Part shown: piece after piece, positions 1-64,000 of the stretch
Position numbering within the stretch: the stretch's first letter is position 1
Layout of the letters: each line of letters opens with the position of its first letter
Origin: an uncultured Candidatus Saccharibacteria bacterium
GTDB taxonomy: Bacteria; Patescibacteriota; Doudnabacteria; UBA920
Assembly (NCBI GenBank): GCA_964631145.1
Contig: CAZVXT010000001.1
Coordinates: forward strand, 52,969 to 116,968
Direction: 5' to 3'
DNA: 64,000 bases
Notes under the pieces: model-generated
The model's database searches: none
What the model was told of the DNA's origin: nothing
What the model saw: only the letters and a program-made list of their open reading frames with translations
Program-made: the position numbers and the translations under genes

Positions 1-1
1 T

Positions 2-850
2 GTTGGTTTAAAAATATTAGGAGAGAGTCAATTTAAAATCTTTACAGATAATTTTGCAAAACTATATTCTGATGCCGGTTATTATATTAGAGTTTACGGC
101 ACTTTGCCGCATGCCAATATCTTGGGTGGTGTTCTAGTTATTTGTTCTATATTCAACCTATACTTACTTAACAAAAATATACATAAGTATTTAAAAATTG
201 CTTTTAGTTTACTTTATATAATTACTGCGATAGTTATAGGTTTAACATTTTCCAGAAACGCAATTTTGGCTTATATAATTAGCACTACAATATTCTTAAC
301 CTTAAACTTATTTAAATATAGTTTCTCAAAGAACTTACTAGCAATAGTTACAGTTATACTATCAATTATAATTACCACATTAATAGTAAATCCCTTAATT
401 TCCGCAAGATTAAATATTAAAGATCAATCCATAACTGACAGATATCTTTATAATAAAGCAGCTATAAATATGATAATTCGAAATCCAATATCAGGCGTTG
501 GACTGGGAAACAGTGTTTTACAGCTAAATAAATACTCAGATCATAAATTTAACTCAACAGAAACTCAACCTATACACAATTCATATCTCGCAATTATTAG
601 CGAATGGGGGATAGTAGGACTAGCAACAATAATTGCCTATTTTTGGCTTATATATAAGACATTTTGGCTTTATGCAAAAACAAAAAGCAGCCAATTAGCT
701 GCTATTATATCTATTCTAATTGCAATTTCCATACTAGGTATTTTCGACCATTATCCTTATACATATTTTCCTTTTACGTTGCTAGTAATAATTATTTGTG
801 GAATATCATATAGGCATATCACTTATGATAATTCATCCCAGCTAAAATAG
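2..850 (+). CDS. O-antigen ligase (Wzy_C/WaaL-family) membrane protein, 3' part; reading frame is open to the window edge so the 5' end lies outside the window
   Basis: Multi-TM protein with the H-N-x-Y-L...E-W-G motif (IHNSYLAIISEWGIVGL) typical of Wzy_C; no in-frame stop between position 2 and the TTG at 104. Confidence 0.5.
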   Translation, partial: VGLKILGESQFKIFTDNFAKLYSDAGYYIRVYGTLPHANILGGVLVICSIFNLYLLNKNIHKYLKIAFSLLYIITAIVIGLTFSRNAILAYIISTTIFLTLNLFKYSFSKNLLAIVTVILSIIITTLIVNPLISARLNIKDQSITDRYLYNKAAINMIIRNPISGVGLGNSVLQLNKYSDHKFNSTETQPIHNSYLAIISEWGIVGLATIIAYFWLIYKTFWLYAKTKSSQLAAIISILIAISILGIFDHYPYTYFPFTLLVIIICGISYRHITYDNSSQLK

Positions 851-1289
851 TTCCAGCTCTGTACAACTGTTCTATTAATACAAGCCTTGCCATATTATGA
901 GGAAATGTTAACTTGCTCAAAGATAGAGTATAACTTGAATTTAAAACAGCCTCTCTAGACAAACCAACTCCACTACCCAACAAAAAACATAAGGTTTTTC
1001 CTGATTCTGTAATATGATTAATAAATGTTGCAAACTCTGTGCTATTAAAGGACTTACCTACTTCTTCCAAAGTGATTAAAATATCGTCTTCTTTTATATA
1101 CTTTTGGACCTTTTTCCACTCTACAAGCTTGATATTTTCTATACCTGAGGATTCACTATAAGATTCTTCTGGCAATTCTATTAACTCGTGCTTATAAAAC
1201 TTTGGAAAACGCTTAAGGTATTCGTTTTCCAATTGCTTATAACCAGGTTCTTTTAATTTTCCTAAACAAATAATTTTTAATTTAATCAT
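819..1289 (-). CDS. rlmH: 23S rRNA (pseudouridine1915-N3)-methyltransferase RlmH (SPOUT family)
   Basis: 156 aa; N-terminus MIKLKIICLGKLKEP..YLKRF and length are typical of RlmH. Confidence 0.8.
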   Translation of the reverse strand: MIKLKIICLGKLKEPGYKQLENEYLKRFPKFYKHELIELPEESYSESSGIENIKLVEWKKVQKYIKEDDILITLEEVGKSFNSTEFATFINHITESGKTLCFLLGSGVGLSREAVLNSSYTLSLSKLTFPHNMARLVLIEQLYRAGTILAGMNYHK

Positions 1290-1318
1290 ATATAAAAAGC
1301 CGCCTCATGGCGGCTAAA

Positions 1319-3386: not shown

Positions 3387-3419
3387 ATTAAAAAAGAGAG
3401 TAGAAATACTCTCTTTAAA

Positions 3420-3875
3420 TTATTTATCAGCATTAAACTGTTTAATCACAATATGATCAATTTTGTTAGCGATCAACCTCTTAAAGTCGTTTGCTTTTAC
3501 AGTTACCCCTTTTTGATTCATAAACATATTGGCAATATTGCCAAGTAATAAAACCCATCTATCTTCAGATATTCCGATATTTTCTGGGGCTTTTAAAAAT
3601 TTATTAGTATTTTTTATTGCTTCCAAAACAGAATCATATAATTCTTCACCAGATTTTCTAACCTCTTGCGAACTAAATGAGTCTAGTTCTTTAAGATTGT
3701 CAGATATATAATCGTTTAGCGGTATTTGATCACCCGGGTAAAAATGACCCCCCAAATCCACCCCATGTAAATAAGCAAAATATAATTTTGCATAAACAAT
3801 ATCTATGCTCTTAATAGGTATTTCTATGCCTAAAGCTTTTAAGATTAGCACAAAGGCTATAATTCTAGAATTCAT
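3420..3875 (-). CDS. Hypothetical protein (accessory-class gene with a perfect SD)
   Basis: 151-aa ORF preceded by AGGAGGAATTATG; no recognisable domain. Confidence 0.5.
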   Translation of the reverse strand: MNSRIIAFVLILKALGIEIPIKSIDIVYAKLYFAYLHGVDLGGHFYPGDQIPLNDYISDNLKELDSFSSQEVRKSGEELYDSVLEAIKNTNKFLKAPENIGISEDRWVLLLGNIANMFMNQKGVTVKANDFKRLIANKIDHIVIKQFNADK

Positions 3876-3970
3876 AATTCCTCCTAAATAAAATTATCCT
3901 TAAGAATATCTAAATATTCTATATTCTGCAACTTGCCAAAATTAGATTTTTTTAGTATATTTAATAAGTT

Positions 3971-5911
3971 ATGAATTTATCATCCTTATCGCACGAATTA
4001 AATATCTCAATCGGGGAGTTGAGGCAGAAAGCTGCCGCAGCCGGTTTACCAATACCTGTTCGTGCAAATAAAATTGATAATCACTTTGCAAAACAGATTT
4101 TAGATAAACTTAAATCCGTAAAAACACCTGAAACAAAAGCAACAGAAAATTCTAATAAATCTATTACTCTACCAAGCTTTATTAAAGTTCGTGATTTTGC
4201 AGAAAACCTCAAACTTCCAGTTACCACAGTTATCAAAACACTTATTCAAAACGGTGTTATGGCAACAATTAATGAAGAAATAGATTTTGACACAGCAAGT
4301 ATTATAGCTAACGATTTAGGGTATGAAGTTAATTCAGCTGAAAATTCAAGTACAGAATTTGGTGCTGGCTACTTACAAGAACAACTTACTCACGAAAAAG
4401 AGAGCGGGGCTATATCCAGACCACCGATAGTTGCTGTAATGGGACACGTAGACCATGGGAAGACCACATTATTAGATGCAATTAGAAGTGCCAATGTAGT
4501 AGATACAGAATCTGGTGGTATAACTCAACATATTGGAGCTTATCAAATTAAGCACGACAATAAAGTTATAACCTTCTTAGACACTCCTGGACACGAAGCT
4601 TTTGTAGAAATGCGTGCCCGCGGTGCTAATGTAACAGATATTATCGTTTTAGTTGTAGCAGCTGACGACAGCGTAAGACCTCAAACTATTGAGGTTATTA
4701 ACCGTGCCAAATTTACCAATACTCCAATTATCGTTGCTATTAACAAGATCGATAAAGAAAATGCTAATGTTACCAAAACCAAGCAAGAATTAGCAGAGCA
4801 TGGAATTTTAACTGAAGACTGGGGAGGAAAAACAATAGCTGTAGAAATTTCAGCAAAACAAAACATCGGTATTGATAAGTTATTAGAAATGATCTTACTT
4901 CAAGCAGAAATAGAAAACTACACAGCAAATCCAAACGGTAAAACACTAGGAACTGTTATCGAATCCCATATTGCCCAAGGACAAGGATCAGTTGCGACTG
5001 TTATTGTACAAAACGGCAGCCTTAAAGTTGGAGATGTGATTTCTGCAGGAATTGGATATGGCAAAGTTAAGTCTTTAGAAGATGCGAAAGGTAAGAAGCT
5101 AAAGTTTGCAGGACCTGGTACACCTGCTGTAGTATCTGGTTTTTCAGACTTGCCAGAAGCAGGTGATATTTTGCAAACACCGCAGTCTTTGGAAGAAGCA
5201 AGAAATATTGCGATAACGGCACAAAAGCTTAAGCATAGTAGAAAACTAACCGCACGCAGCAAAATCCAAGGTGACACTGATTCAAAAACATTAAACCTTA
5301 TTCTTAAAGCTGATGTTGCCGGCTCATTAGAAGCTATAAAACAATCTTTAGCAAAACTAAAGAATGATGAAGTACAAATTAATATCCTTAATGAAGGTAT
5401 TGGTGAAGTAAATGAAAATGATGTGTTGCTTGCAGAAAACACCAAATCAACAGTCATTGGTTTTAGAGTAAAAACCAATCCTAAAGCTATCAACTTGGCA
5501 AAACAGAAGTCAATAACAATTGATAACTATGATGTTATTTATGAACTTCTAGAAACAATCACCAGCGCAGTTGTAGACATGTTCACCCCTGAAATGGAAA
5601 AAGTTACATTTGGCTCAGGTGAAGTATTAGCAATATTTAGAACTGAAAAGGGGCAAATGATTATCGGTGGTAAAGTTACAGAAGGTGAAGTTCGCAAAAA
5701 TAAGCAAATAGCAATCTTAAGAAAAGATAGCGAAGGACAACTACAAGAAGTAGCAAGGGGAGAAATACTAGAACTTCAACAAAATAAAATAGATACCAAA
5801 GAAGTTACCAAAGGCAATGAGTTTGGTATGAAGATCAAAACCAACTTCAAGCTTACAGCCGGCGATACCCTAGAAAGTTTCGAAGAAAATCTAAAAAAGA
5901 AAAGTTTATAA
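3971..5911 (+). CDS. infB: Translation initiation factor IF-2 (short form)
   Basis: G-domain motifs [23 protein letters not shown] and NKID; 646 aa. Confidence 0.95.
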
Positions 5912-5988
5912 AAACACTTAATTATTGACAATTAAGTGTTTTTTTGTTATATTAAATTTCTAAAATCGATTTTATTGGAGGAAAAATT

Positions 5989-6342
5989 ATGGCGATAATT
6001 GCCTATATACCAAAGCACGATTATGATACAAACCAAAGGCTAAAATCATTTTGTGAGTTGTTTTATCAAAATCAAGAGGACAACATAATTATAAACCCGG
6101 ATACACACGCCATAGCATTTGAGTGGGAAAATTTCTGCATTACGACAGCAGAAGTTTATCATCAAAACTTTGCATCACTTTGTAACAGAAACAATGTATT
6201 TGTATTAAAAACAGGGTTTAGAATTAATGCCGGTTTAAGGCTTCAAATCAATGAGCATATCAAAAGACTTGATCCAAACAACCAAGTCCATCCCATGGCT
6301 CATATTAATTTTGAAGAAGAAAAAGATTTCTATCTTTGGTAA
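5989..6342 (+). CDS. Hypothetical protein between infB and rbfA (sits where ylxP/DUF503 is found in other bacteria, but no clear DUF503 match)
   Basis: 117-aa ORF with GGAGGAAAAATTATG SD. Confidence 0.5.
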   Translation: MAIIAYIPKHDYDTNQRLKSFCELFYQNQEDNIIINPDTHAIAFEWENFCITTAEVYHQNFASLCNRNNVFVLKTGFRINAGLRLQINEHIKRLDPNNQVHPMAHINFEEEKDFYLW

Positions 6343-8337: not shown

Positions 8338-8411
8338 GCGGCTATGGTTCAATGGTAGAATTCTTCCTTGCCAAGGAAGGGATAGGGGTTCGATTCCCCT
8401 TAGCCGCTCCA
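8338..8411 (+). tRNA. tRNA-Gly(GCC)
   Basis: Anticodon loop TTGCCAA, T-arm GGTTCGATTCC, CCA end. Confidence 0.9.
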
Positions 8412-8412
8412 A

Positions 8413-8440
8413 ACAAAACCCCCTACAGGGGGTTTTGTTA
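8413..8440 (+). terminator. Rho-independent terminator after the tRNA cluster
   Basis: AAAACCCCCTACAGGGGGTTTTGTT hairpin plus a T-tract; TATAAT of the Nudix gene follows immediately. Confidence 0.7.
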
Positions 8441-8450
8441 TAATTTAAAT

Positions 8451-8855
8451 ATGGAAAATAGAAAAATTAAATCTCGATGCATTATCCTAAACCAAGAAAA
8501 AATTCTTTTAGTTCATAATTCAGAACATGACTATTATTTCTTTCCTGGTGGTTCTTCTAATAATAACGAAAGTCCTGAAGAAACATTGATACGAGAAATA
8601 AACGAAGAGTTCAATTCTAATCTTGAAAACATAAAATTGATTGATATACTAAGAAACGTTGGCGTCAATCAAGATGAAACAATTTCAATGTTTAGTGCAG
8701 ACTTTTTAGATAAAGAGTTATATAAGCAACCAATAATCAAAATTGCCGATGTAAACATGTATGCAAAATGGATATCTTTAAATGATATTAAAAACAATAA
8801 TTTAAAGTTATTTCCTGAATATAACTATCCTAAAATGTTTGAAAAATTATATTAA
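8451..8855 (+). CDS. Nudix hydrolase
   Basis: Nudix box GGSSNNNESPEETLIREINEEF (GX5EX7REUXEEXGU pattern); start moved to the ATG at 8451 because the longer ORF overlaps tRNA-Gly; TATAAT lies at -12..-7. Confidence 0.8.
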   Translation: MENRKIKSRCIILNQEKILLVHNSEHDYYFFPGGSSNNNESPEETLIREINEEFNSNLENIKLIDILRNVGVNQDETISMFSADFLDKELYKQPIIKIADVNMYAKWISLNDIKNNNLKLFPEYNYPKMFEKLY

Positions 8856-9597: not shown

Positions 9598-9912
9598 TAA
9601 GTCAATTTAACTTAAAGATAAGAGCAAAAACATATAATTTGGCTTAAATAAAGTATAAAATGCCAATTTAGCCTTGAAAATAACCTTCGAAACTGGTATA
9701 CTTATCTAGTAAATTACTGCTTTAGGCAGTCTTTTTTAATCAAAGCAAGTCCTGTAAAGGGATAGAAAAACTATTAAAAAAGCCAATAAAACAGTAAATT
9801 TACAGGTCATTTTATCGAGAAATTCATTAAGTCTTTAGCGCAATAGAAAGAATAGTGCTTACGATTGAACCTTTCGGCTTGCGAATCAAGATTAAGGAGT
9901 TGCCTTGAAATA

Positions 9913-10584
9913 ATGAAAGCTAATTTAAATCCAAACACTATCATAGAAAAATTAGTAGTAGTACTAGCTTTTCTACCACTTGTTACAATGGTATATCCAG
10001 AAACAGTGGCTGCTGCATATAATGAAGCGGAAGTGTCTGGGAGACAAGCTATAGTTTTTCAACTCAACTCAAAATCAAAAACAGAAATTGACAATGTATC
10101 CATGTTAACTTATGACCAAGCGGCAGCTGCCGATCCATTGGTAGGAAAAGTTAAAGCTTATTTACAGAGCAAAGGATCACCTTTGGCAATATATGCCGAT
10201 GAAATTGTTAAACAACCACAATGGCAACGTGCTTTAGCTATCAGTTACGTAGAAAGTAACTTTGGTAAGCGTTGTGCAAACAACAACTGTAGCGGTATTG
10301 GTGTAAAACCAGGACACCCGTCTTGGAGAAAATACAACACCAAACTAGATTGGTTTAAAGATATGTCTGCCTTGTTAGAAAAACCAACTTATAAAGAAAA
10401 ATATAAAACCTGTGCCCAAATGAAAGGTGTTTATGTAGTACCTGGAAGCAGCAGGTGGGTAAATGGTTGTAACCAAGTAAGCGGCGAATTACTAACTATT
10501 ACACGTGAAGCAGAACAAGAACGTCTTGCTTTGTCTAACACAAATAATACAGTAGTTGCTGCTACAACTTTGATTGAAAAATAA
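9913..10584 (+). CDS. Secreted GH73-like peptidoglycan hydrolase (N-acetylglucosaminidase family), tentative
   Basis: Signal-peptide-like N-terminus; YVESNFGKRCANNNCSGIGVK resembles the GH73 hallmark E-S-x-x-G ... N-N-x-F-G-I-K; AAGGAG SD 9 nt upstream of the ATG at 9913. Confidence 0.4.
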   Translation: MKANLNPNTIIEKLVVVLAFLPLVTMVYPETVAAAYNEAEVSGRQAIVFQLNSKSKTEIDNVSMLTYDQAAAADPLVGKVKAYLQSKGSPLAIYADEIVKQPQWQRALAISYVESNFGKRCANNNCSGIGVKPGHPSWRKYNTKLDWFKDMSALLEKPTYKEKYKTCAQMKGVYVVPGSSRWVNGCNQVSGELLTITREAEQERLALSNTNNTVVAATTLIEK

Positions 10585-10616
10585 AATGCAAAAGCCGCTA
10601 TAAATTAGCGGCTTTT
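10585..10616 (+). terminator. Rho-independent terminator
   Basis: AAAAGCCGCTATAAATTAGCGGCTTTTGTTTT. Confidence 0.7.
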
Positions 10617-10679
10617 GTTTTATATAATAACTTGAAGAAATTATTTGTTTAAGTTAAAATATGAAAGTATTTAAAAATT

Positions 10680-10888: not shown

Positions 10889-10940
10889 TTGACACAATAC
10901 AAAATGAGAGCTACAATCTAAAGTCACTATAGGAGGAAAT

Positions 10941-11516
10941 ATGACTGTTCAATATAATAATGAAATAGTGTTAGTTGACATAGATGGGACTAAAGCCAAT
11001 ATTGAAACTTCTTTTGATCCAAAGCTTAAATTAATTTTGCCGAAAGAAATATACGATACCAGAGATCGAAGCAAATACTGGATAGAAGAACAGTTTGATA
11101 AGAAATATCACCAAAAAATTTATGATATTTTTTTACAAGAAGGATTCTTTTTAAACTTAAATCCGATAGAGGGTGCAATAGAAGCAATTCATCAAATGAC
11201 AGATTTGGGATTAGATGTATTAATTTGCACAACACCACATCTTAATTCTAAATTTTGCATAAATGAAAAAATTGCTTGGATAAAAAAATATTTTGGAAAT
11301 GATTTTGAAAAAAGAATTCTGCCGGTGTATGACAAAACGCTAATTCATGGTCAAATCTTAATTGATGATAAACCAGAAATCTCTGGAAGAATTTCCAAAC
11401 CATCCTGGACACATATCATTTTTGACGCTCCCTATAACCAACATATTGATACAAAATACAGAATACGTAATTGGTCTAAGTGGAGAGAAACTGTAGATTT
11501 AATATTAAAGAGCTAG
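10941..11516 (+). CDS. 5'(3')-deoxyribonucleotidase (HAD superfamily, NT5C-like)
   Basis: N-terminal DxDGT motif (VLVDIDGT) and size typical of the 5'(3')-deoxyribonucleotidase family; perfect AGGAGGAAAT SD. Confidence 0.6.
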   Translation: MTVQYNNEIVLVDIDGTKANIETSFDPKLKLILPKEIYDTRDRSKYWIEEQFDKKYHQKIYDIFLQEGFFLNLNPIEGAIEAIHQMTDLGLDVLICTTPHLNSKFCINEKIAWIKKYFGNDFEKRILPVYDKTLIHGQILIDDKPEISGRISKPSWTHIIFDAPYNQHIDTKYRIRNWSKWRETVDLILKS

Positions 11517-50791: not shown

Positions 50792-50795
50792 CTTT

Positions 50796-51542: not shown

Positions 51543-51770
51543 CTAGTTATTAATTAAGCAGTAATATATTTTTTTACTAACCTAGTCTCTATAAAATAAA
51601 TTCATAAATAGAGCCGCGAAGTTGTTCGAAATGTTATAGTGCTGCTTTTTATATAATTTAAAATAGCTGACATTTGAATTAGTTAGTTTTTTATTAGGAT
51701 CAATATATTTGACAAAAACTTAATTTTTAGGTATAATTGGATTATTAATTTAGTTTAGGAGGATTTTAAA

Positions 51771-52178
51771 ATGTTAACATATTCTAGGATTGCAACTATG
51801 TCGCTAATAGTCGTTTCGTGGCTATTATTTATTTTCGGATTTACTTCCACAGATAATTTTGTCCTCCTAGGAGGATTGATTACAATAATTGCTGTGGCTT
51901 TGTGTTTATTTGCTACGCAAGTTGAAAGTAGTAGTATGGGGGTATCTATTATAGAGTTTTATATTGTTGCCTTACATTATGGGGCGACAATAGCAATTGC
52001 TTTTTACCAAAGACTTCCTTTTGGGGTCACTTACACTCTTATAAGTATATTTGCGCTAATTTCATTTTCTGCACTGGCAATGTTTGGCGGTGCTGTATTC
52101 AATAATGCCTCTGCTGTCCGAATTAACTTTTGGACACCTAATTATGGAGACATATGGAAAAGGAAACCTGGCAAATAA
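51771..52178 (+). CDS. Hypothetical 4-TM membrane protein (perfect SD)
   Basis: 135 aa; TTAGGAGGATTTTAAAATG. Confidence 0.45.
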   Translation: MLTYSRIATMSLIVVSWLLFIFGFTSTDNFVLLGGLITIIAVALCLFATQVESSSMGVSIIEFYIVALHYGATIAIAFYQRLPFGVTYTLISIFALISFSALAMFGGAVFNNASAVRINFWTPNYGDIWKRKPGK

Positions 52179-52281: not shown

Positions 52282-52677
52282 TTACGCTTTTTTCTTTTTT
52301 GCTTTTGTTATATTTGGTTTTTGACCATAGTGCAGCTTTATGTTTTTAGAAGGTTCTGATTTATCTAACTTCAAAAAATTTTCAACCACTTTATTATTAG
52401 GCAAAACTATTACTGGGATATTTAATCCAAGTGCAAGGCTTTGTCCCAAAGCTGTTCCAACTCTAATCCCTGTAAAAGACCCTGGTCCGCTGGCGGTAAT
52501 AATTTTTGATATTTGATTAAACTTAAGTTTGTTGGATTTTAAAAACCTTTCTAGTAACTCTAAAGTTTTGTAGTTCTCATTAAAGGCTATCTCAAAAGTT
52601 TGTTTAATGATTTTTTCTTTGGATACGATTTTAAATTCTGCCTGTCCAAAATTAGTTGTATTGATAACTAAAATCAT
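52282..52677 (-). CDS. tsaB: tRNA t6A biosynthesis protein TsaB (N-terminal-domain-only short form)
   Basis: ITASGPGSFTGIRVGTALGQSLALGLNIPVIVL is the TsaB/YeaZ signature; only 131 aa. Confidence 0.75.
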   Translation of the reverse strand: MILVINTTNFGQAEFKIVSKEKIIKQTFEIAFNENYKTLELLERFLKSNKLKFNQISKIITASGPGSFTGIRVGTALGQSLALGLNIPVIVLPNNKVVENFLKLDKSEPSKNIKLHYGQKPNITKAKKKKA

Positions 52678-53975
52678 GATTCTAAAATTTGCTTAATAAT
52701 CTCTCTATCGTCCCACAAAATTCTTTTGTTGCCAGGTAGAACTAGAAACTGTTCACTGCCTTTTCCTGTGACAAGAAGAATATCTTTAGGCTGTAAAATT
52801 TTGATAGCAAATTGTAATGCTTCTAATCTGCTCAGTATTACTTCGTGTTGGATTTTAGGATTTTCAGATCTTATTCCTTTTACTATTTCTGCTGCGATTT
52901 CTTGGGGATTGCTTTCGTATACATCATCGTTGGTCACGATTATATAGTCAGCAAATTGTGCAGAGATTTGTCCAAACTCAAATCTTTTGCTTTTATCACG
53001 ATGTCCGCCAGTCGCACCAAAAACATGAATCAATCTGTTATGTGGCAATTTATGAACTGTTTGAATACTGTTATAAAGCGGCTTGGGCTCTGGTGCGTAA
53101 TCAACAATAATATTTGCGTCTAAATTATTTTTTATAAATTCCATTCTTCCGGCAGCTCCATTATAAGATGCAAGTGCTGTTGCGGATTGTTGTAATGTGA
53201 TGCCATAAAATTTTGCGGCCGTGGTTGCTAATAAAGCATTATAGATATTGAACCTGCCGATGATATTTAAGTTAAACTTAACATCATTAACCATGTAAGA
53301 AGCTGCCCCTTTATCGTTAATCTCAGCGGCTGTAATTAAGTTTGTAATATGTGTCTCTATTTTTTGTTTTAAAGTGACTCCAAACAAATTACTTACTGGT
53401 TGGTTGGCAAAAACTTCATAATGTTTGTCATCAACATTAACTACAATAAATCCATCTTCTGGAATCAATTTAAATAATTTTAATTTAGCATTTCTATAAT
53501 TATCAAAATTACCATGGCTATCCAAATGAGCAGGTGATAGGTTGGTAAAAATTGCCCCAGAAAAATTAATTTTTAAGTGACGATTTTGAGCCATGCCTTC
53601 GGAGGTGCATTCGATAATTGCAAACTGGCAACCATTGCTAACAAGTTGTGCTAAATTTTTTTGAAGTAGCCAACCGCCTGGCATAGATAATCCATGTTTG
53701 TTTAAAATGCTTGTATCTCCATCGCTAAAACCAACTGTTGTAATGTAACCAGTTTTTTTATTATTTTGATTTAAGATATGAGCCAGCATCATGACAGTAG
53801 AAGATTTTCCTGCTGTGCCAGTAACACCAATACAGATTAGCTTTTGACTAGGGTGATCGAAATATAAATCTGCTAAAGTTGCGATCATTCCATGCCAATA
53901 AGGTTGAGCAAGTTTAAAGATGCTTCTGGGAATAAAAATTTTTATAACTTTTTTTATTTGGCTTAACATAAACAA
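52674..53975 (-). CDS. MurE-like Mur ligase lacking the N-terminal UDP-binding domain
   Basis: [30 protein letters not shown] parallels E. coli MurE [42 protein letters not shown] and [16 protein letters not shown] are Mur-ligase motifs; C-terminal [10 protein letters not shown]...WDDRE; overlaps tsaB by 4 nt. Confidence 0.7.
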   Translation of the reverse strand: [433 protein letters not shown]

Positions 53976-54055
53976 ATTATACCTGATATTAATATATTTG
54001 ACAAAAATTGATTTTTATGATAAAATAACAAAAAAAATATGGAGGAATTTTGATA

Positions 54056-54912
54056 TGAATCAAATTCAAAAAATGCAGCAAATTTCCAGTGAAATTCGAC
54101 TTTGGTTAATCAGTTTCGCGATCAGTGTTGTGTTATTGATTTGTGGTGGCGCGCATATTACTTATTTGTCATTTTATAGGGTAGATTGGGGGTTCTGGGG
54201 TAGTCTTTTATTATATTTTTCTATAATAATAGTGCAAGTGGCTGGGGTTGTCTCAATTGCGACTTGTCGCAAGGTTCCTGTATTACATCAGACCTTTAAT
54301 ATTGAGGCAACAAAATATTTTCGGCAAAACCCAAAATTCGTTACTCTTAGAAAAAGTAAAACTGCCCCCGTTTACTTTACGGTTAGAAATATATTTTTCA
54401 TGATTTTTATGGATGACTTTATTCAAAAAGTTGATGAAAATATTAATGAGCAGTATATAGAAATGTTAAATAATATTTCTATAAGTAAAATTGATGAACG
54501 TCATTATGAAAAAGATGAGATCCTACAAAACTTTTTAGAGTCAAACGAAGTTGCCATTGATTATAAAATTTCTAAAAGAATTTTAAAAGCCATTGGAAAT
54601 TACGCAATGGCGATAAATCAAAAGCAGTTGTTGATTGATGAAGTAGAAGCCAGATTTTTTGCCAAGGATCAATCCAAGGTAGTTGAGCAAAAAGTAGAAC
54701 CTCCAAAAGTTCTATCTAAGTTTGAAAGACGGCTACAAGAATTTGAAAAAGAAGTTGGAAGTAATAAACTTTCTACTATGGCTCAAGACCTAATTAACCA
54801 GGCTATTCTTAAAGAAGATCCAAACCTCGTTAGTGGTGCTTTGACAATTTACCGCCAAGACTTAAAAAAGAAAAAAGACTTGGAACAAAAAGCCAAAAAG
54901 GTGAAGGTGTAA
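54056..54912 (+). CDS. Hypothetical membrane-anchored coiled-coil protein
   Basis: Start set at MNQIQKMQQ (ATGGAGGAATTTTGATATG) because the longer ORF overlaps the murE-like start; 2 TM helices plus a charged C-terminal half. Confidence 0.45.
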
Positions 54913-54980: not shown

Positions 54981-55946
54981 TTAAAAAAAGTTTCTAATTA
55001 ATTTAAGAGCTTTATAAATTTGATAAGAAAAATTCTTGATAACAATATCTTGTGCTGGCGGGTATTTGATAGCAAATCCTGGAAACTTTTTTTTGAAATC
55101 ACTAAATCCTGCATTTTTTCCGCTAGAGGTTTGTAATCCCCACCAATCGTATTTTTGTTTGCCTATATTTTGCGCATCTTGGATTATTTTCCAGTGCATC
55201 AAATATGGCGCCATATATTTGCGGTACTCGTAGTTACTGCCGCCAAATAAATAAGTTCGTGTATTTAAAAAGTCTATAGTGATTGCCGAAGTAATAATTT
55301 TGTTGTGATAAGTAGCGGCATAGAGATGATTGCTAACTTGGGAGCTTTTTAAATTATTTATTAAAGTTTTGTAGTATTCAAAATTATGATCTTTGTATTG
55401 CTGCCGTTCGGCTGTGTTATTAATTAGCTTTAGTCCTTCGTTAATTTCCTCTTCTTTATCAAGTATTTTTATTTCAACATTATGCCTTTGTGCCAGATTT
55501 ATATTGTATCTAGTTTTGTGATGCATACTAGATAATATGTCTGGTGCATTATCTGTTAAATCTGTAATCCAAGTAATGCCTGGTTGAATTCTAGAGCCAA
55601 TTTTGCCACGGCAGTTAAATTCTTGTTGAGGTTCTATTTTTATATAAATAAAGTCTTTGTTTAAAGATTTAAGATTATTTAATAAAAAAGCTATACCTAT
55701 TTTGCTTCCTAATGGACCATATGGGCAGTATAAAAACTTTTTGTTTATAAATGGAATTGTTTGAATGAAAAACTGTGCAGAAGCAATAATTTGATTATTA
55801 TCTTCAACTAAATATTTTAACGAAACTTTATTTTGTTGTGCTTGAAAATCTCCCCACTCTATACTTTGCAAAAAAGAGGAGTGTTGCTTTTCGATAAATT
55901 GATTATATAAATCTTTGTTGAGATCGCTAACTTCTATAACTTGCAT
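54981..55946 (-). CDS. FemAB-family (FemX/MurM-like) aminoacyl-tRNA-dependent peptidoglycan branch transferase
   Basis: 321 aa with the FemAB-family layout and conserved C-terminal region (KYMAPYLMHWKIIQDAQNIG). Confidence 0.65.
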   Translation of the reverse strand: MQVIEVSDLNKDLYNQFIEKQHSSFLQSIEWGDFQAQQNKVSLKYLVEDNNQIIASAQFFIQTIPFINKKFLYCPYGPLGSKIGIAFLLNNLKSLNKDFIYIKIEPQQEFNCRGKIGSRIQPGITWITDLTDNAPDILSSMHHKTRYNINLAQRHNVEIKILDKEEEINEGLKLINNTAERQQYKDHNFEYYKTLINNLKSSQVSNHLYAATYHNKIITSAITIDFLNTRTYLFGGSNYEYRKYMAPYLMHWKIIQDAQNIGKQKYDWWGLQTSSGKNAGFSDFKKKFPGFAIKYPPAQDIVIKNFSYQIYKALKLIRNFF

Positions 55947-56507
55947 TTATATTTTCCCAATTAGTTTTAACGCTTCTTTAATTTGCTCTCCGGTATCAAC
56001 AGTTGTATCGATTTTACCAATAACTTCTCGTACTTCTCGAGGATTGTAGCCAAGAGAAATTAATGCATCAAATAAGTCACTGCTTGGTCCAGAAGTAGAT
56101 TGAAGAATATTGCCAGACATTTTATTTTTAAGTTCTAAAATAATTCTTTCGGCAGTTTTTTTACCTACCCCGGACATGCGAGTAAATATATCGCTATCGC
56201 CAGAAAGAATAGCTTGTTCTAACATATCTAATTTACCAGCAGAGATAATGGTAAGAGCCATCTTTGGTCCAACCCCTGTGACAGTTAGGAGCAATTCAAA
56301 AAATTGTAAGCTAGTAAAATCGCTCATACCAAATAAAGTTTGACCGTCATCGCTGGATTTATGGTAAATATATAAAGAAATATTTGAACCAGCTGTTTGA
56401 TCTAAAATCTCTGGAGTTGTAAAAATTTTATAACCAACTCCGTTATTTACCAATATGATAAATTGAGCAGTTTTTTGTAAGATTTTTCCTTCAAGATAAC
56501 TAATCAT
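55947..56507 (-). CDS. ruvA: Holliday junction DNA helicase subunit RuvA
   Basis: MISYLEGKI...; HhH motifs (GVGPKMALTIIS, GVGKKTAERIILEL); 186 aa. Confidence 0.9.
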   Translation of the reverse strand: MISYLEGKILQKTAQFIILVNNGVGYKIFTTPEILDQTAGSNISLYIYHKSSDDGQTLFGMSDFTSLQFFELLLTVTGVGPKMALTIISAGKLDMLEQAILSGDSDIFTRMSGVGKKTAERIILELKNKMSGNILQSTSGPSSDLFDALISLGYNPREVREVIGKIDTTVDTGEQIKEALKLIGKI

Positions 56508-56587
56508 ATAATTGATTATAGCATTGCCCTGGCTTGCACAAAAGACAATTGCGGTTATAATAAATAGAAATATAAGGAGGGGTTAAA

Positions 56588-57376
56588 ATGTCTAGTATTG
56601 TTACTTTCAATAGCGGTGTGTCAGAATTTTATTATTTAATACCAGATAGATTTCAAAATAAAAAAATCCATGGAATTAAAATATGTGTAACAGAAAAAGC
56701 AAATGAGCATATATGTAAATTTTTTACGTCCAACTCACCCTTAATAGCTAGAGCTCTAAAAGAACGCAAAACAATTAATTTTGTTGAGCCAACATTCAAA
56801 GGTGCTTGGGGTTTAGATTCTTGTTGTATTTCAAAGAAAAAAAATAATATAGTCGAGCACACTTTTTCTTTTGATGCTAAATGGTCTTTGATTAGAGAAA
56901 TGCTAAATATAATGTTTTTACTCTTAAGCATAATAGAAGATGATTATTTGGTAAATTCGCAATACAAACAACTAATGATAATTGAATCCTTAGGCGTAAC
57001 AAGTGGATTAAGCCACTCTTATATATCAGGTTCTGTATCATCAATATTTAAAAACTCTTCAGATTTTTTATTTGAACGTGGTAATAAAAACCATCAAGAG
57101 GTTTTAAAAAATATGCAGTATGTATATTCAGAATATTCTTCAGAGCGTAATAAAAGTAGTTTTAGGTTTAGTGTGGACAATGGTGGTCAATTTGGATTAT
57201 CAGTTCCTGGAGATTGTTGCTGTTTAAGTATTCCTTATGACGAACTGGGAGAATTAAAAGATGTTAGTCGATTTGCCTCTCATAACGTTGATGGTATCAC
57301 TCAGCAATTCTCGTTACTAATTGGTTTGGCGACCATGTGGGAAATCGTAAGAAATAACTATCTACTTAAGGTCTAG
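56588..57376 (+). CDS. Hypothetical Cys-containing protein (accessory-class; perfect SD, own terminator)
   Basis: 262 aa; AAGGAGGGGTTAAAATG; contains a CCC triplet and a hydrophobic central segment. Confidence 0.45.
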   Translation: MSSIVTFNSGVSEFYYLIPDRFQNKKIHGIKICVTEKANEHICKFFTSNSPLIARALKERKTINFVEPTFKGAWGLDSCCISKKKNNIVEHTFSFDAKWSLIREMLNIMFLLLSIIEDDYLVNSQYKQLMIIESLGVTSGLSHSYISGSVSSIFKNSSDFLFERGNKNHQEVLKNMQYVYSEYSSERNKSSFRFSVDNGGQFGLSVPGDCCCLSIPYDELGELKDVSRFASHNVDGITQQFSLLIGLATMWEIVRNNYLLKV

Positions 57377-57437
57377 TATTAGACCTTTTTTATTTTCTTA
57401 TACTTTGCTATGTTAAAGAAAAATTAGGAGGATAATT

Positions 57438-58301
57438 ATGGCTCAATATACTAGTATTGGAAACCTTTTTACTATATATAAAGAATCCGTGCCGCAATGG
57501 TATAAAATTAGTTTTGATTTTGTATCAAAATCTTTTGAGTTTATTGTTCAAAAGCAAATCGCAGAATGGTGCGAGGAAAATTTTATAAATAAAAACTTTG
57601 GACATGTTCAAGGCTACTGCAAAGATTTTGGCTTTGAATTTACTAAGCCGTTTAAAAATCAAAATTGGGGATTTAATAAAAATATTTCTGCAAAAAAAAT
57701 AATAAATCAAAATTGGGTTAAATATAAAATTAAGATCCCTACAAAAAATTATTATCAAGGAATTCCTGTTTTTACCCAAAAAAGTAATAAGCAAATACTA
57801 GCAACCTGTGCTTCCATATCGGAATTTGCTTTAATGCTTGGTTGTGTTCCGTTTGATTTGCCTATAGATTATGGACAAAAACAAGTATTACATTTTTATT
57901 CAAGCCTAAACAGCGATGTTGGTGCTTTAAATAGATTTCCGGTTTCTGCTTATGTATCAAGTTCTGTTTGTGAGTGGGCGCTTTTAGCTGGACAAGATAA
58001 TTTAAATATCCTGGCTTATAATATTGATAAAGTAGAAAATATTATCTGTGGTTACCAAAACTATTCGGAGCGTCCCCGAGCATGGATAAATTTAATCAGT
58101 GACTTTTATATAGGAATTAACATTGGTGTGCATTTGGGAATGAGTCCTAACATGCATAATGCTAAAGCTTCTAACTATGATATTGGCTATACATTAGTTT
58201 CTGATAATGCGGATAATTGCACAAATCAGTTGATATTAATGTGTAGCTTGGCTTTATTGCACAATGAAGTAGAAGTTTGTTCAACAGAAGTTTGGGGGTA
58301 A
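57438..58301 (+). CDS. Hypothetical Cys-containing protein (accessory-class; possible distant paralog of the preceding gene)
   Basis: 287 aa; TTAGGAGGATAATTATG; terminator hairpin TGCTAATTTTACATGAATTAGCA at 58311-58344. Confidence 0.45.
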   Translation: MAQYTSIGNLFTIYKESVPQWYKISFDFVSKSFEFIVQKQIAEWCEENFINKNFGHVQGYCKDFGFEFTKPFKNQNWGFNKNISAKKIINQNWVKYKIKIPTKNYYQGIPVFTQKSNKQILATCASISEFALMLGCVPFDLPIDYGQKQVLHFYSSLNSDVGALNRFPVSAYVSSSVCEWALLAGQDNLNILAYNIDKVENIICGYQNYSERPRAWINLISDFYIGINIGVHLGMSPNMHNAKASNYDIGYTLVSDNADNCTNQLILMCSLALLHNEVEVCSTEVWG

Positions 58302-58372
58302 TTTAATATGTTCTGCTAATTTTACATGAATTAGCAGTTTTTTTATTTTTTTCAAAATTTTGGCAAAATCAC

Positions 58373-58400
58373 TTGACAAAAAATACTTGACGTTTATAAT
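58373..58400 (+). promoter_or_regulatory. Near-consensus sigma70 promoter (TTGACA-16-TATAAT) driving a ~360-nt rpoB leader
   Basis: Exact hexamers; the only strong promoter in the 466-nt gap upstream of rpoB. Confidence 0.6.
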
Positions 58401-58767
58401 AAAAAAGTGAATAAATCATAAGAAATCCAGGCAAATCATAAAGCCCTATTTTGCGTCCGCGAAATTGGGAATCTTTTTTTTGAAAAAGCCAAAAAAGCTT
58501 TAAAAATCTGGATTTTAAACACAAAATCACATTACTAATAGAACTTTTGCGTTTGTGGCTAGTTTTGAGAAAAATTGCTCTTGTTAGCAGAATAGCCCAT
58601 AACTACCTCACGAGCATAAAGGCTCTATTACTCCTGAAAAAACACGACTGTTGGTAGCTTAACTGATCAAAAACAAAAATCTCCTCCCAAAGACCTGTTT
58701 TGGGCTTTAAATCATTAAAACTTTTGCTTTATTTAAGGGCAAAAGTAAGGAAAGCTACGTTTAAAGT

Positions 58768-61700: not shown

Positions 61701-62247
61701 AGGAGTTTCTACTACTGGTAAAGTTACCTTGTATGATGGTAAAACCGGTGAAGCATTTGATGAGCCTGTAACTGTAGGTATGAAATACATGCTTAAACTC
61801 CATCACTTGGTTGATGACAAAATGCATGCTCGTTCTACAGGTCCTTACTCTTTAATTACTCAGCAACCTCTTGGTGGTAAAGCTCAAATGGGTGGACAGC
61901 GTTTCGGTGAAATGGAAGTATGGGCTTTAGAAGGATATGGGGCTGCTCATACATTACAAGAAATGTTGACTATCAAATCTGATGACGTTGTTGGAAGAAG
62001 TAAAACTTACGAATCTATTGTAAAAGGTGAACCAATCAAAAAACCTAATGTTCCAGAAAGTTTCCGTGTACTTGTAAAAGAGTTACAAAGCTTAGGTCTT
62101 GATGTAGAGTTGATTGGTGAACATGGAATAATGAGTGCTACAGAAGAACCTCCAATTATGGAAGAAGCACAGCCAGAGCCAGCGGTCGAAGCTTTGGGTG
62201 GTCCGTCTTTGTTTGATGAACCAGAGAAACCGAAAAAGAAAAAATAG
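58768..62247 (+). CDS. rpoB: DNA-directed RNA polymerase subunit beta
   Basis: 1159 aa; conserved beta motifs throughout (e.g. GFEVRDVH, NMQRQAVSCIVP, GDKMAGRHGNKGV). Confidence 0.97.
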   Translation: MPNVQLEAIGSIDIPGQRPVPRKFFSRQHETAQLPNLIEIQLNSYKWFFDKGLKELLDEINPIHDFTSKNLELYFGDFFFDKPKYDEMTARERNTTYEAPLYVSAKLVNKVTGKTKTQDVYFGDFPLMTPRGTFVINGVERVVVSQLIKSPGVFFTSEFSRGRNLYGAKIVPNRGAWLELDTDNAGVIGVKIDRKRRIPITALLRVFGLSSNQEILEAFKDVDTNPEMKYIQATLDKDVSTNTDEGFKEVYKRIRPGDLATVDNAKSLISAMFFNFERYDLSEVGRYKFNQRLDIDVKNEDRILSLEDMLLVVKEIIRLNNTGEAADDIDHLANRRIRAVGELIQTRYRVGLARMARIAKDRMSLADLETVTPAQLIHVRPIVAASQEFFSSSQLSQFMDQTNPLAELEHKRRLSAMGPGGLSRERAGFEVRDVHRSHYGRLCPITTPEGPNIGLVAHMATYARLNDFGFIETPYRIVKKFAKNDGKDAVDEIASFDIKNENGDVIVEAGKKISESDAKKLQKIADLDQVRIKVRVTKKVQYMDAYEEEKLTIGPANLDTDENGYFVEDRVSVRVRGVPTIADSNEIDCIDISPKQIISVTTSLIPFLEHDDANRALMGSNMQRQAVSCIVPRAPIIGTGMEGKAARDSGQVIMAEEDGEVTSVTGNKITVKGESGKTYEHTLLKFLRTNSGTSINQIARAQKYQKVKAGDVLADGTSTEHGELALGQNVLVAFMSWEGGNYEDAILLSSRLVQDDYYTSVHIEDFKIDIRDTKLGAEQVTRDIPNVGEEKLKNLDETGVVRIGSQVKAGDILVGKITPKGETDLTAEEKLLRVIFGEKSRDVKDTSLTLPHGEYGKVVNIREFSRENGDKLQSGVIRSIQVSIAVLRKIQVGDKMAGRHGNKGVISRIIPVEDMPFMADGTQVDIILNPLGIVSRMNLGQVLETHMGFAARKLGYKVATPVLDGLTEDIIKEELQKAGVSTTGKVTLYDGKTGEAFDEPVTVGMKYMLKLHHLVDDKMHARSTGPYSLITQQPLGGKAQMGGQRFGEMEVWALEGYGAAHTLQEMLTIKSDDVVGRSKTYESIVKGEPIKKPNVPESFRVLVKELQSLGLDVELIGEHGIMSATEEPPIMEEAQPEPAVEALGGPSLFDEPEKPKKKK

Positions 62248-62481
62248 GACGACTTCTAAATTTGAATAACTTCTTCGTTAAAATGCTCCGGTAATTTTCA
62301 CCGTAACAATTATTACGGCTCAAATTATCCTCACATTTTGCCTCGAGTTTATTTCAAATTTATAAGCCTTAAGAATTTAAAATAATTTTCTTAGCTTTCT
62401 ATTTAACAATTTTAAAAAGTGAGAGTACGGTGTTGTAAAATATTTCACTCTCACTTCTATCAAAGATAATTTAAATAAATT

Positions 62482-64000
62482 ATGTTTACACAAACTGAAG
62501 AATTTAAAGGTGTAAAAATCAAACTCGCTAGTCCGGAAACTATTTTAGAATGGTCTCATGGTGAAGTTACCAAACCAGAAACCATTAACTATCGTACTCA
62601 GCGTCCAGAAAAAGAAGGTTTGTTTGATGAAAAGATTTTTGGTCCTATTAAGGATTGGGAATGTTACTGTGGTAAATACAAGCGTATTCGTTACAAAAAT
62701 ATTATTTGTGACAAATGTGGTGTGGAAGTTACCAAAAGCAGTGTTCGCCGCGAACGCATGGGACATATTACTTTAGCTGTTCCTGTAGTTCATATTTGGT
62801 TTTTGCGCAGCGTTCCAAGTCGCTTAGGTTTAGTATTAGACTTAGGTGTTCAAGAACTAGAGCGCTTGGTGTATTTTGCAGCTTATATTATTACTGGTGT
62901 TGATGAAGAAGCTCGCAACGCAACTTTAGAACAAATTGAAGGTGAGTTTAAATCTAAAAAGAAAGAAATTGAAACTCGTTACGAAGGACTGCTTGGTAAA
63001 GCTCGTACCCAAATGGGACAAGATCTAAAAGGCGATCAAGACGTGGTTGCTGCAAAAATTGATGCAGAAGTTACTCGTCTAAAAGACATGTGGCAAAAAG
63101 AAGTTGATGCTTTAGAATCTATTCGCGATCAGGCTCGCAGCGAACTTAAGAGTATTCGCAAAATGCAAATTATTTCTGAACTTGCATACCGCGACCTTTC
63201 TCTAAAGTATGGACCTGTATTTACCGCTGGTATTGGTGCGGAAGCTCTTAAAGGTTTGTTGGAAGAAATTAACTTAGAAGAATTAGCAGCAGAATTAGAA
63301 ACCAGTTTAAAGAACAGTGAAGGGCAGGCTGCTAAAAAGATTTTACGTAGAGTTAAGTTAATCAAATCTATGGTGCGTAGTGGGGTTCGTCCAGAATGGA
63401 TGTTAATTACTCACTTGCCTGTAATACCACCAGATTTGCGTCCAATGGTTCAATTAGATGGTGGACGTTTTGCTACATCAGATTTAAACGATTTGTACCG
63501 TCGTGTTATTAACCGTAATAACCGTCTAAGAAAACTTCTAGAAATTAAATCTCCAGAAGTTATTACCAGAAACGAAAAGCGCATGCTTCAAGAAGCTGTT
63601 GATGCGCTAATTGATAACTCGGTTCGTCATGGTAAAGAAGTCACTGCTTCTACTGGGCAAAAGCGCAAGCTTCGCAGTTTGGCAGATATGCTTAAAGGTA
63701 AGCAAGGACGCTTCCGTCAAAACTTGCTTGGTAAACGTGTAGATTATAGTGGACGTAGTGTTATTGTGGTTGGTCCAAATTTACAATTGCACCAATGTGG
63801 TTTGCCAAAACAAATGGCTTTAGAATTATTTAAACCATTTGTAATTTCTAAACTTATTTCTAGAGAATATGCTCATAACGTCCGTAGTGCTAATCGTTTG
63901 ATCGAGCAGGGACGCAATGAAGTATGGGATATTTTAGAAGAAGTAACTAAAGATCACTTTGTACTTCTTAACCGTGCTCCGACCTTGCACAGACTTGGTT
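62482..64000 (+). CDS. rpoC: DNA-directed RNA polymerase subunit beta', 5' part (continues beyond the window)
   Basis: Hand translation [55 protein letters not shown]...[23 protein letters not shown] (zinc-binding motif) ...[10 protein letters not shown]; absent from the ORF track because there is no stop in the window. Confidence 0.95.

Follow-up and report, generated by a model that had tools for sequence, protein, structure and literature searches.

In a 64-kb stretch of bacterial chromosome from an uncultured Candidatus Saccharibacteria bacterium (hereafter the window, meaning the whole stretch that was analyzed), we observed two promoter-to-start geometries that were mutually exclusive by gene: Either a −10 box ended 6 to 9 nt before the ATG start codon, or a −35/−10 promoter was followed by a leader carrying an (A)GGAGG(A) Shine-Dalgarno (SD) sequence. 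The data support a discrete, nonrandom SD class of stand-alone transcription units with little annotation and little conservation. We think it probable that three modes of translation start are in use and that the choice among them follows gene conservation. The window surrounds dnaA and has a GC content of 32%, with rpmH-rnpA-yidD-yidC-jag and dnaA-dnaN-recF at its center and a turn of the GC skew at ~28 kb. Its gene content is typical of Patescibacteria, or Candidate Phyla Radiation (CPR) bacteria (FemAB, VanW, PilB, a four-domain bS1, short genes, and seven tRNAs including tRNA-Ile(UAU)), and identical contigs are present in the Logan assemblies SRR12712853, SRR12712864, and SRR12712865. 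A curated set of 68 genes in the window divided into 18 SD-led, 14 leaderless-like, 18 coupled, and 18 other SD-less genes.

The SD class stood out sharply from the background. The pattern GGAGG-N4-10-ATG occurred 17 times on the two strands, compared to 4.5 ± 2.0 times in shuffled sequences (0 of 100 shuffles reached 17), and all 17 matches opened open reading frames (ORFs) of 47 to 394 amino acids (aa). These are the same 17 starts for which an earlier note on this DNA had claimed a strong SD, and its spacing of 4 to 10 nt upstream of the ATG was likewise confirmed in 17 of 17 genes when measured from the end of GGAGG. The perfect AGGAGG(A) that it saw at all 17 was present at 13, and not at 5989, 14280 (−), 49215 (−), and 54055 (TGGAGGA only); two of its coordinates also shift slightly, from 54056 to 54055 and from 49073-49215 to 49072-49215. 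In total, AGGAGG occurred 23 times on both strands, with 13 occurrences located 4 to 10 nt before the ATG of an ORF. When we computed the duplex energy of the −22 to −1 region of each gene with ACCUCCUUA, the distribution was bimodal: 17 SD genes scored −9.3 to −13.3 kcal/mol, the gene at 9913 (AAGGAG) scored −8.7, and the other 50 genes were all above −8, nearly all above −6. None of the housekeeping genes previously named as SD-less had an SD, all their names were verified by Pfam, and the best score among them, −5.9 for rpoB, came from a badly spaced site. The SD-led genes are the following (no Pfam, no Pfam match; TM, predicted transmembrane segment).

3420-3885 (−), hyp151 (151 aa, no Pfam): AGGAGGA at 3885-3879, 4-nt spacer after GGAGG.
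5977-6342 (+), hyp117 (no Pfam): TGGAGGA, i.e., GGAGGA only; promoter TTGACA-17-TATATT at 5925-5953.
9894-10584 (+), hyp223 (no Pfam), a possible 18th SD-led gene: AAGGAG 13 nt before ATG 9913; start uncertain.
10931-11516 (+), 5′-nucleotidase of the NT5C family: AGGAGGA; promoter TTGACA-17-TACAAT at 10889-10917.
13031-13724 (+), hyp226 (no Pfam): AGGAGGA.
13759-14293 (−), hyp173 (no Pfam, 1 TM): GGAGGA only.
17948-19142 (−), HD-domain protein (394 aa): AGGAGGA; in L087, the closest relative, another SD-led ORF occupies the slot.
39487-39930 (+), hyp142 (no Pfam, 1 TM): AAGGAGGA.
43981-44527 (+), hyp178 (no Pfam): AGGAGGA.
45056-45827 (+), hyp251 (no Pfam): tandem paralogue of hyp229.
45907-46607 (+), hyp229 (no Pfam, 2 TM): true start 45918, not the longest-ORF ATG at 45882.
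48777-49080 (−), hyp97: GAGGAGGT.
49072-49225 (−), hyp47, a very basic mini-ORF (47 aa): GGAGGA only; its coding status is the least certain.
49282-49768 (−), hyp158 (3 TM): homologues in three relatives (34 to 40% identity), all with an SD.
51757-52178 (+), hyp135 (no Pfam, 4 TM): TTGACA-like −35 and TATAAT 33 nt upstream.
54041-54912 (+), hyp285 (2 TM): GGAGGA only; ATG 54055.
56575-57376 (+), hyp262: AAGGAGGGG; distant paralogue of hyp287; its start and that of ruvA make up a divergent pair (56507-56588).
57426-58301 (+), hyp287: sparse family syntenic with ruvA; SD kept in three of three homologues inspected.

The mini-ORF hyp47 ends AAA AAG AGG AGG TAA one base before the hyp97 ATG, such that its last two Arg codons form the SD of hyp97. 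The base after GGAGG was A at 15 of 17 sites in the window and at 24 of 35 sites in relatives (L007-L049), where a canonical anti-SD would pair with U. We rejected a variant anti-SD as the cause, as the available 16S tails (L152 and L156) predict U, and the A probably reflects a preference for A-rich spacers. A search for ribosomal RNA genes found none in the window and none in 86 uvrB-anchored loci. Complete 16S genes were found only in two distant gyrA-anchored loci, L152 (9443-10917) and L156 (12895-14473), both ending in GGATTACCTCCTTTCT; in L156, the 23S gene begins ~4 kb after the 16S gene.

The SD-less genes separated into three groups, namely, 14 leaderless-like first genes, 18 internal genes (gap of −17 to +25 nt), and 18 genes with a leader or an unclear promoter, which include dnaA, dnaN, rpoB, rpoC, rbfA, pilB, and a small gene before gyrA. 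The SD was absent from all 18 coupled internal genes and from all 18 of the last group. The identification of housekeeping with leaderless genes in the earlier note is thus oversimplified: ~14 of the 50 SD-less genes look leaderless (~10 convincingly), and the 18 coupled and the 18 leadered or other ones do not. Where it had placed TATAAT exactly at −12 to −7, before the Nudix (8451), MBL-fold (14413), and PBP1 (23209) genes, we found it, and we found it additionally before an ABC ATPase (49838) and a Mur ligase (53969, −). The hexamers of ruvA, uvrB, and polA lie within 1 to 3 nt of this spacing, as it also stated (TATAAT at −13 to −8 and at −15 to −10, and TACAAT at −14 to −9, respectively). 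Accordingly, exact TATAAT boxes ended 6 nt before five gene starts, 7 nt before one, and 9 nt before one. Among all 1777 ATG triplets of the window, only 10 had TATAAT 6 to 9 nt upstream, and 7 of these were gene starts; four of the seven were extended −10 boxes (TGnTATAAT), and two others had a good −35. A hexamer with at least five of six matches at 6 to 9 nt preceded 16 of the 49 SD-less genes and none of the 18 SD genes. All 14 leaderless-like candidates start with ATG, and promoters in both classes were of the TATAAT/TTGACA type, with a canonical −35/−10 at SD genes and more reliance on the extended −10 at leaderless-type genes. Before SD-less genes, positions −5 to −2 were A-rich, which did not amount to a discrete motif.

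In mapped leaderless promoters, the −10 box typically ends 5 to 7 nt before the transcription start (PMC8079986), and at the observed spacings, an mRNA would therefore be expected to begin with the A of the ATG or 1 to 3 nt upstream of it. A leader of ≤5 nt is the limit applied to leaderless mRNAs (PMC4007540). The main SD-less genes and operons are listed here.

8439-8855 (+), Nudix, leaderless-type: TGT-TATAAT at 8439-8444, 6 nt, ATG 8451.
14401-15045 (+), MBL-fold, leaderless-type: TGT-TATAAT, 6 nt, ATG 14413; arrangement repeated in L087 and L094.
23197-26019 (+), PBP1, leaderless-type: TTGGTA-17-TATAAT, 6 nt, ATG 23209.
49826-51542 (+), ABC ATPase, leaderless-type, followed by a coupled ABC-2 permease: TGA-TATAAT, 6 nt, ATG 49838; permease gap 4 nt, no SD.
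52282-53981 (−), Mur ligase, leaderless-type, followed by overlapping tsaB (no SD): TTGTCA-17-TATAAT, 6 nt, ATG 53969.
54981-56520 (−), ruvA, leaderless-type, followed by an abutting FemAB gene (0-nt gap, no SD): TGC-TATAAT, 7 nt, ATG 56507.
46657-48738 (−), uvrB, near-leaderless: TATAAT 9 nt before ATG 48723; 6 to 8 nt in relatives.
39970-42746 (+), polA, near-leaderless: TACAAT 8 nt before ATG 39984.
3933-5911 (+), infB: TTGCCA-17-TATATT ends 9 nt before ATG 3971; predicted leader ≤3 nt.
26053-27935 (−), rpmH-rnpA-yidD-yidC-jag operon: internal gaps −8 to 16 nt, no SD; translational coupling class.
31936-36500 (−), tsaE-vanW-ruvB-hyp71-bPH_2-manC operon: overlaps or gaps of −17 to 5 nt, no SD.
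33768-34799 (−), ruvB.
11541-12767 (−), bS1 in a short four-domain form (408 aa): SD-less; relevant to SD-independent initiation.
21924-23111 (−), tyrS.

Several of these starts deserve comment. The public call of the Nudix gene (8352-8855, +; 167 aa, start 8352) overlaps tRNA-Gly (8338-8411); a start at 8451, preceded by TGTTATAAT-N6, is far more probable, and the call illustrates how standard gene callers mis-start leaderless genes. The starts at 9913, rbfA, and Mur ligase are ambiguous. A further TATAAT-N6-ATG at 42792-42815 (+) opens a three-codon ORF ~100 nt upstream of the Fic/RhuM gene; this may be a mini-ORF of the leaderless type, or the box may just be the promoter of fic, whose leader would then measure ~100 nt. 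For the bS1 gene, the strongest promoter match lies ~190 nt upstream (12988-12960). The small gene before gyrA (15220-15435, +) encodes a conserved 71-aa protein with a single TM, lies 8 nt upstream of gyrA, and is masked by a 90-aa shadow ORF on the opposite strand; its leader of ~55 nt, which follows a TATAAT at 15154, is A-rich and lacks an SD, and orthologues of 69 to 77 aa precede gyrA in L087, L088, L089, and L094.

No Pfam domain was found in 16 of 18 SD genes versus 6 of 48 SD-less genes (Fisher p=1e-8, odds ratio ~56), with the NT5C nucleotidase and the HD-domain protein as the exceptions, and at least one TM was predicted for 10 of 18 versus 10 of 49 others (p=0.014), which bears out the earlier description of these genes as mostly of unknown function and often membrane proteins. 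The same holds for the statement that most have their own promoter and hairpin terminator: A −10-like hexamer lay 17 to 40 nt upstream of 15 of 18 SD genes (nine of these with a match to TTGACA of at least five of six), and a terminator-like hairpin lay directly 3′ of 15 of 18, versus 21 of 49 other genes. Convergent gene pairs, many of them made up of one SD-led and one conserved gene, share perfect palindromic hairpins with T-runs on both strands as bidirectional terminators (3393-3416, 13729-13752, 17917-17944, 10588-10618, and others). The class includes two tandem paralogue pairs, hyp251/hyp229 and hyp262/hyp287. GC content, GC content at third codon positions (GC3), and length did not differ significantly between SD genes and other window genes. 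The mRNA folding around the start was also alike (p=0.99), and we therefore rejected the idea that the SD compensates for start-site structure. The highly expressed genes of the window (rpmH, rpsT, rpsA, rpoB, rpoC, and infB) all lack an SD, which argues against reading the SD as a plain sign of high expression.

The partition was reproduced in relatives, namely, metagenome-assembled genomes (MAGs) at 73 to 79% UvrB identity that are labeled Candidatus Saccharibacteria, Candidatus Doudnabacteria, or Patescibacteria group UBA926. We compared thirteen syntenic loci around uvrB from different species, in which the order of polA, rpsT, uvrB, the ABC transporter, tsaB, Mur ligase, FemAB, ruvA, and rpoB is kept, and fixed the starts of conserved genes by orthologue alignment from residue 1. 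The earlier note had proposed comparing the phyletic distribution of the two classes, and in this syntenic region, a homologue was detectable for 2 of 11 SD genes versus 12 of 12 SD-less genes (p=7e-5). The slots of the SD genes were not empty in the relatives: Other small ORFs with a strong SD sat there. Orthologues of SD-less window genes had an SD in only 3 of 148 cases (9 of 148 when all candidate starts were considered and the best SD among them was taken), and all four homologues of window SD genes retained theirs. Among relatives' ORFs without a homologue in the window, 35 of 144 were SD-led (33 of 81, or 41%, at lengths of at least 80 aa); ~5 of these 35 matched Pfam, versus 37 families among 39 SD-less ORFs that likewise lacked a window homologue.

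The leaderless-type spacing was conserved as well. A −10 box lay 5 to 10 nt upstream of 50 of the 148 orthologues, and the histogram of spacings peaked sharply at 6 nt, a distance shared by 28 hexamers, of which 14 were exact TATAAT. This was specific to particular genes: ruvA (10 of 11), ABC ATPase (10 of 14), uvrB (8 of 13), Mur ligase (7 of 12), and polA (7 of 13) had it, and the internal genes FemAB (0 of 12), ABC-2 permease (0 of 13), and tsaB (1 of 13) hardly did. All 50 leaderless-like orthologues start with ATG, with a start-picking procedure that slightly favors ATG, and 19 of the 50 carry TGn. In the gyrA region, L087 (77% GyrA identity) retained TATAAT-N6-ATG at the MBL gene and had an unrelated 200-aa ORF with CAGGAGGA after gyrA, in the slot of the HD gene; L094 had a 96-aa SD-led ORF in the rpsA-MBL slot.

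In the slot between ABC ATPase and uvrB, six relatives carry members of one family of SD-led peptides (78 to 122 aa) with an MYHD or MYD N terminus, one TM, and an NRSGGFF C terminus (L008:9720-9989, L011:9146-9379, L012:9085-9450, L015:2709-2966, L014:9091-9339, and L049:9747-9989). The occupant of this slot in the window, hyp97, looks unrelated to them.

We then compared the frequency of SDs on ORFs without any homologue with that on ORFs conserved in at least three loci.

Window: SD on 67% of ORFs without homologue versus 13% of conserved ORFs, odds ratio 13.
Family: 49% versus 9%, odds ratio 9.5 (p=2e-8).
Other CPR, uvrB set: 32% versus 15%, odds ratio 2.6.
Mixed metagenome gyrA set: 23% versus 17%, odds ratio 1.4 (not significant).
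Clostridia: 46% versus 52%, odds ratio 0.8.
Chloroflexi: 35% versus 67%, odds ratio 0.3.

Because Clostridia and Chloroflexi lacked the split, it is lineage-specific and strongest in the family, rather than a by-product of AT-richness or ORF calling. With one uniform, annotation-free procedure applied to all groups, a −10 box at 5 to 9 nt without an SD preceded 24% of the family's ORFs, versus 2% in equally AT-rich loci of Clostridia and 1 to 5% in Chloroflexi and Proteobacteria.

From these data we infer where transcription starts, how 70S binding and reinitiation would operate, and why the genes are partitioned, as follows. The first genes of conserved operons (e.g., nudix, MBL, PBP1, ABC ATPase, Mur ligase, ruvA, uvrB, polA, and infB) would be transcribed from a sigma-70–type −10 box, often TGnTATAAT, that ends 6 to 9 nt before the ATG, so that the mRNA would begin at the start codon or 1 to 3 nt upstream. 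Such a leaderless mRNA could be bound by the 70S ribosome with initiator tRNA and initiation factor 2 (IF2), with no need for an SD; binding of the 5′-AUG of leaderless mRNAs by 70S ribosomes is known (PMC9031893). Downstream operon genes (−17 to +25 nt from the stop, no SD) most likely start by termination-reinitiation or coupling. A further SD-less set, comprising dnaA, dnaN, rpoB, rpoC, the small gene before gyrA, rbfA, and pilB, has A-rich leaders. CPR ribosomes are reduced, with bS21 variably present across CPR lineages, and the four-domain bS1 of the window is in line with CPR bacteria generally (PMC9297842); this protein may be relevant to recruiting SD-less leadered mRNAs such as those of dnaA and rpoB. 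Initiation by 30S subunits through the anti-SD would be left almost only to stand-alone genes with their own −35/−10, a leader of ~10 to 33 nt, and their own terminator. These would fill the variable slots between conserved operons and appear to be lineage-specific, fast-evolving, and often small membrane proteins. In the reading that we favor, old operons would have been streamlined to leaderless or coupled starts, and young or fast-changing genes would need a self-sufficient promoter-SD-terminator unit. This arrangement would also allow the two gene sets to be regulated differently, and a separate translational regime for SD genes seems plausible.

The earlier note had proposed the SD genes as a candidate accessory, acquired, or condition-specific set, and one may ask whether they arrived recently by horizontal transfer from SD-dependent donors or phages, as cassettes already equipped with a promoter, an SD, and a terminator. 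Their absence from syntenic relatives, their self-contained organization (promoter and terminator each in 15 of 18), and the unrelated SD-led ORFs that share a slot in different genomes would all fit such an import, as would the GC3 of SD-led variable genes, which exceeded that of the core in 11 of 11 genomes (the window and L007-L049) by 0.01 to 0.13. In the window itself, however, GC3 was close to host values (0.25 for SD genes versus 0.23 for the core; p=0.08), and across the 11 genomes, the GC3 of SD-led variable genes tracked that of the host (r=0.92, from 24% to 60% GC3); relaxed codon selection, younger age, or older import are possible sources of the excess. A phage origin was rejected, as three scans of viral contigs yielded no close viral homologue of hyp287, the HD protein, or hyp226, and PHROG yielded nothing specific for SD genes except a generic NT5C family. 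A defence-system origin was rejected as well, with no PADLOC match beyond a marginal HD/dGTPase. The SD genes are spread, alone or in pairs, across at least 10 slots, and no integrases, transposases, other mobility genes, or flanking repeats accompany them. Local duplication is suggested by the tandem paralogue pairs. The hyp287 family is especially informative. Exhaustive HMMER searching of 1.84e9 representatives returned 11 proteins for hyp287, nine of them full length at 26 to 33% identity, and the hidden Markov model of the family also detected hyp262 (E=2.6e-9) and an ORF in L049; for hyp262, a word-seeded search of 5.8e9 proteins found only itself. In L167, the hyp287 homologue and ruvA are divergent neighbors, the arrangement also seen in the window. 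The homologue is likewise 287 aa long and carries AAGGAGG 4 nt before its ATG; it is 30% identical where the neighboring RuvA is 75% identical, and this ruvA has TATAAT-N6-ATG. GGAGGA or AAGGAGG also precedes the homologues in L168 and L169. At least this one family thus appears to be vertically inherited beside ruvA, and the SD itself is under purifying selection; as it is retained by selection within families, the SD would be a functional signal of a gene class and not a relic of import. We conclude that recent import is an unlikely origin, that the label "acquired" is not supported, and that a lineage-specific, rapidly diverging class with some turnover fits better.

The favored link between start mode and gene conservation also has to be weighed against three other explanations. 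The partition might be a regulatory or expression device, in which SD genes are highly translated, such as those for abundant surface proteins, or can be switched; as the only genes dependent on 30S/anti-SD initiation, they would gain or lose output relative to the leaderless and coupled core when IF3, IF2, bS1, bS21, or free 30S subunits change. The near-perfect, optimally spaced SDs that are conserved within families, the enrichment of predicted membrane proteins, and the distinct promoters (canonical −35/−10 versus extended −10) agree with this, and in mycobacteria, leaderless and SD-led translation differ with growth state (PMC8485053). The equal folding of the start regions speaks against it, and the lack of SDs on the highly expressed genes runs contrary to an equation of SD with high expression; we regard this explanation as possible yet doubtful. 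It has also been considered that the SDs and −10 boxes are artefacts, i.e., chance TATAAT and ATG in AT-rich DNA, wrong starts that hide SDs, and SD-led ORFs arising by chance. TAAAAT and AATAAT are indeed common at 32% GC, the count of seven TATAAT-N6-ATG was reached by 1 of 100 shuffles, and a few starts are ambiguous, but all 17 GGAGG-N4-10-ATG matches open ORFs, 7 of the 10 TATAAT sites are gene starts, the conserved starts are fixed by alignment with only 9 of 148 orthologues having an SD at any candidate start, Clostridia of equal AT content reach only 2%, and the relatives display the sharp 6-nt peak. These controls largely refute an artefact, which we consider extremely improbable. In Bacteroidota, the anti-SD is normally occluded on the ribosome. 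A comparable state, with a special ribosome population translating the few SD mRNAs, would account for a genome in which most genes lack an SD, positions −5 to −2 are A-rich, and a small set has very strong SDs, much as in the group B described for GeneMarkS-2 (PMC6028130), and the reduced CPR ribosomes with variable bS21 (PMC9297842) could accommodate it. Unlike in that group, the window promoters are of the sigma-70 TATAAT type, many first genes have the leaderless −10 spacing, and the SD minority (~26%, about a quarter of genes and far above a handful) is set by low conservation, which makes a Bacteroidota-like state very unlikely.

Several observations weigh against our favored reading of a start mode that follows conservation. 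The total sample comprises the 64 kb of the window and ~250 kb from relatives around two anchor genes (uvrB and gyrA). The leaderless status of window genes is predicted from the −10 spacing; 4 of the 14 calls have weak hexamers (AATAAT or TAAAAT, at rpmH, rpsT, fic, and tyrS), and rpmH has a better TATAAT 28 nt upstream. The only 16S 3′ ends found are those of the distant loci L152 and L156, which read CCUCCUUUCU. The association between SD and lack of conservation weakens in distant Patescibacteria (odds ratio 2.6, falling to a nonsignificant 1.4 in the metagenome set). Part of the "not conserved" category reflects the limit of BLAST on short membrane proteins, and some slot-mates are probably diverged orthologues. 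The GC3 excess in all 11 genomes counts on the same side.

Three further features of the window stand apart from the two gene classes. tRNA-Ile with anticodon UAU (19296-19372, +) reads AUA directly and not via a lysidine-modified CAU tRNA, which is notable for a reduced AT-rich genome. A 466-nt gap before rpoB (58302-58767) is without an ORF or Rfam match, and a 370-nt region after ruvC (21552-21923) holds only a highly acidic 55-aa ORF; an RNA or leader absent from the catalogues may lie in either of them.

Genomes that mix leaderless and SD-led genes are known. Group C of GeneMarkS-2 comprises bacterial genomes of this kind, mainly Actinobacteria and Deinococcus-Thermus, and resembles the window in having a Pribnow box ~6 to 8 nt from the start of first genes and SD sites at a similar distance elsewhere (PMC6028130). 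However, internal and leadered genes of group C are modeled as SD-using, whereas none of 18 internal genes in the window has an SD and SDs occur only on stand-alone, poorly conserved genes; Patescibacteria were not found in the description of the group (PMC6028130). In Deinococcus deserti, an SD is present on 62% of leadered mRNAs, and in contrast to the window, both classes occur in all COG categories (45 to 75% leaderless), uvrB and gyrA are leadered, and no sharp conservation split is reported (PMC4007540). That system rests on mapped transcription starts, whereas our leaderless calls come from sequence alone. Mycobacterium tuberculosis likewise has a sizeable leaderless fraction beside SD-led genes (PMC3898074), with a different response to growth state (PMC8485053), yet its bias is opposite: Toxin-antitoxin and other non-growth functions are predominantly leaderless (PMC8485053), whereas in the window, it is the conserved core that looks leaderless. 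The 18 window genes that overlap or trail a stop codon by ≤25 nt (ATGA- and TAATG-type) resemble known coupling and termination-reinitiation junctions, but most bacteria keep an SD inside the upstream gene at such sites, and the window has none except for hyp97, whose SD comes from hyp47 codons. In an earlier survey, information-processing COG categories showed a relative excess of leaderless genes (PMC3160421), a trend in the same direction as the split in the window, though much weaker. Our literature search found no paper on SD or leaderless usage in Patescibacteria/CPR. The window departs from group C and D. deserti in three respects: the internal genes without an SD, the restriction of SDs to poorly conserved stand-alone genes, and the Patescibacteria lineage.

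In Deinococcus, mycobacteria, and Streptomyces, the initiation modes are spread over functions or biased the opposite way. Here, by contrast, the initiation mode predicts whether a gene belongs to the conserved core or is a fast-evolving lineage-specific gene (odds ratios ~10 to 50), and it does so reproducibly across an uncultured Patescibacteria family. A more far-reaching speculation, which we consider unlikely, is that Patescibacteria run two separable programs: a leaderless, coupled, or otherwise SD-less core and an SD-dependent, fast-evolving periphery of membrane or surface proteins, possibly for host interaction, which the initiation machinery (IF3/IF2, bS1/bS21, 70S versus 30S) could re-weight and in which new genes would need a complete promoter-SD-terminator unit. 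If the partition is true genome-wide, it would improve the annotation of start sites and small genes in CPR bacteria, where callers that expect an SD mis-start leaderless genes, and would make it possible to flag the "dark" lineage-specific proteome of these episymbionts from sequence alone. It would also offer a natural system in which SD-dependent and SD-independent initiation coexist on reduced ribosomes, and it would bear on how new genes gain their expression signals.

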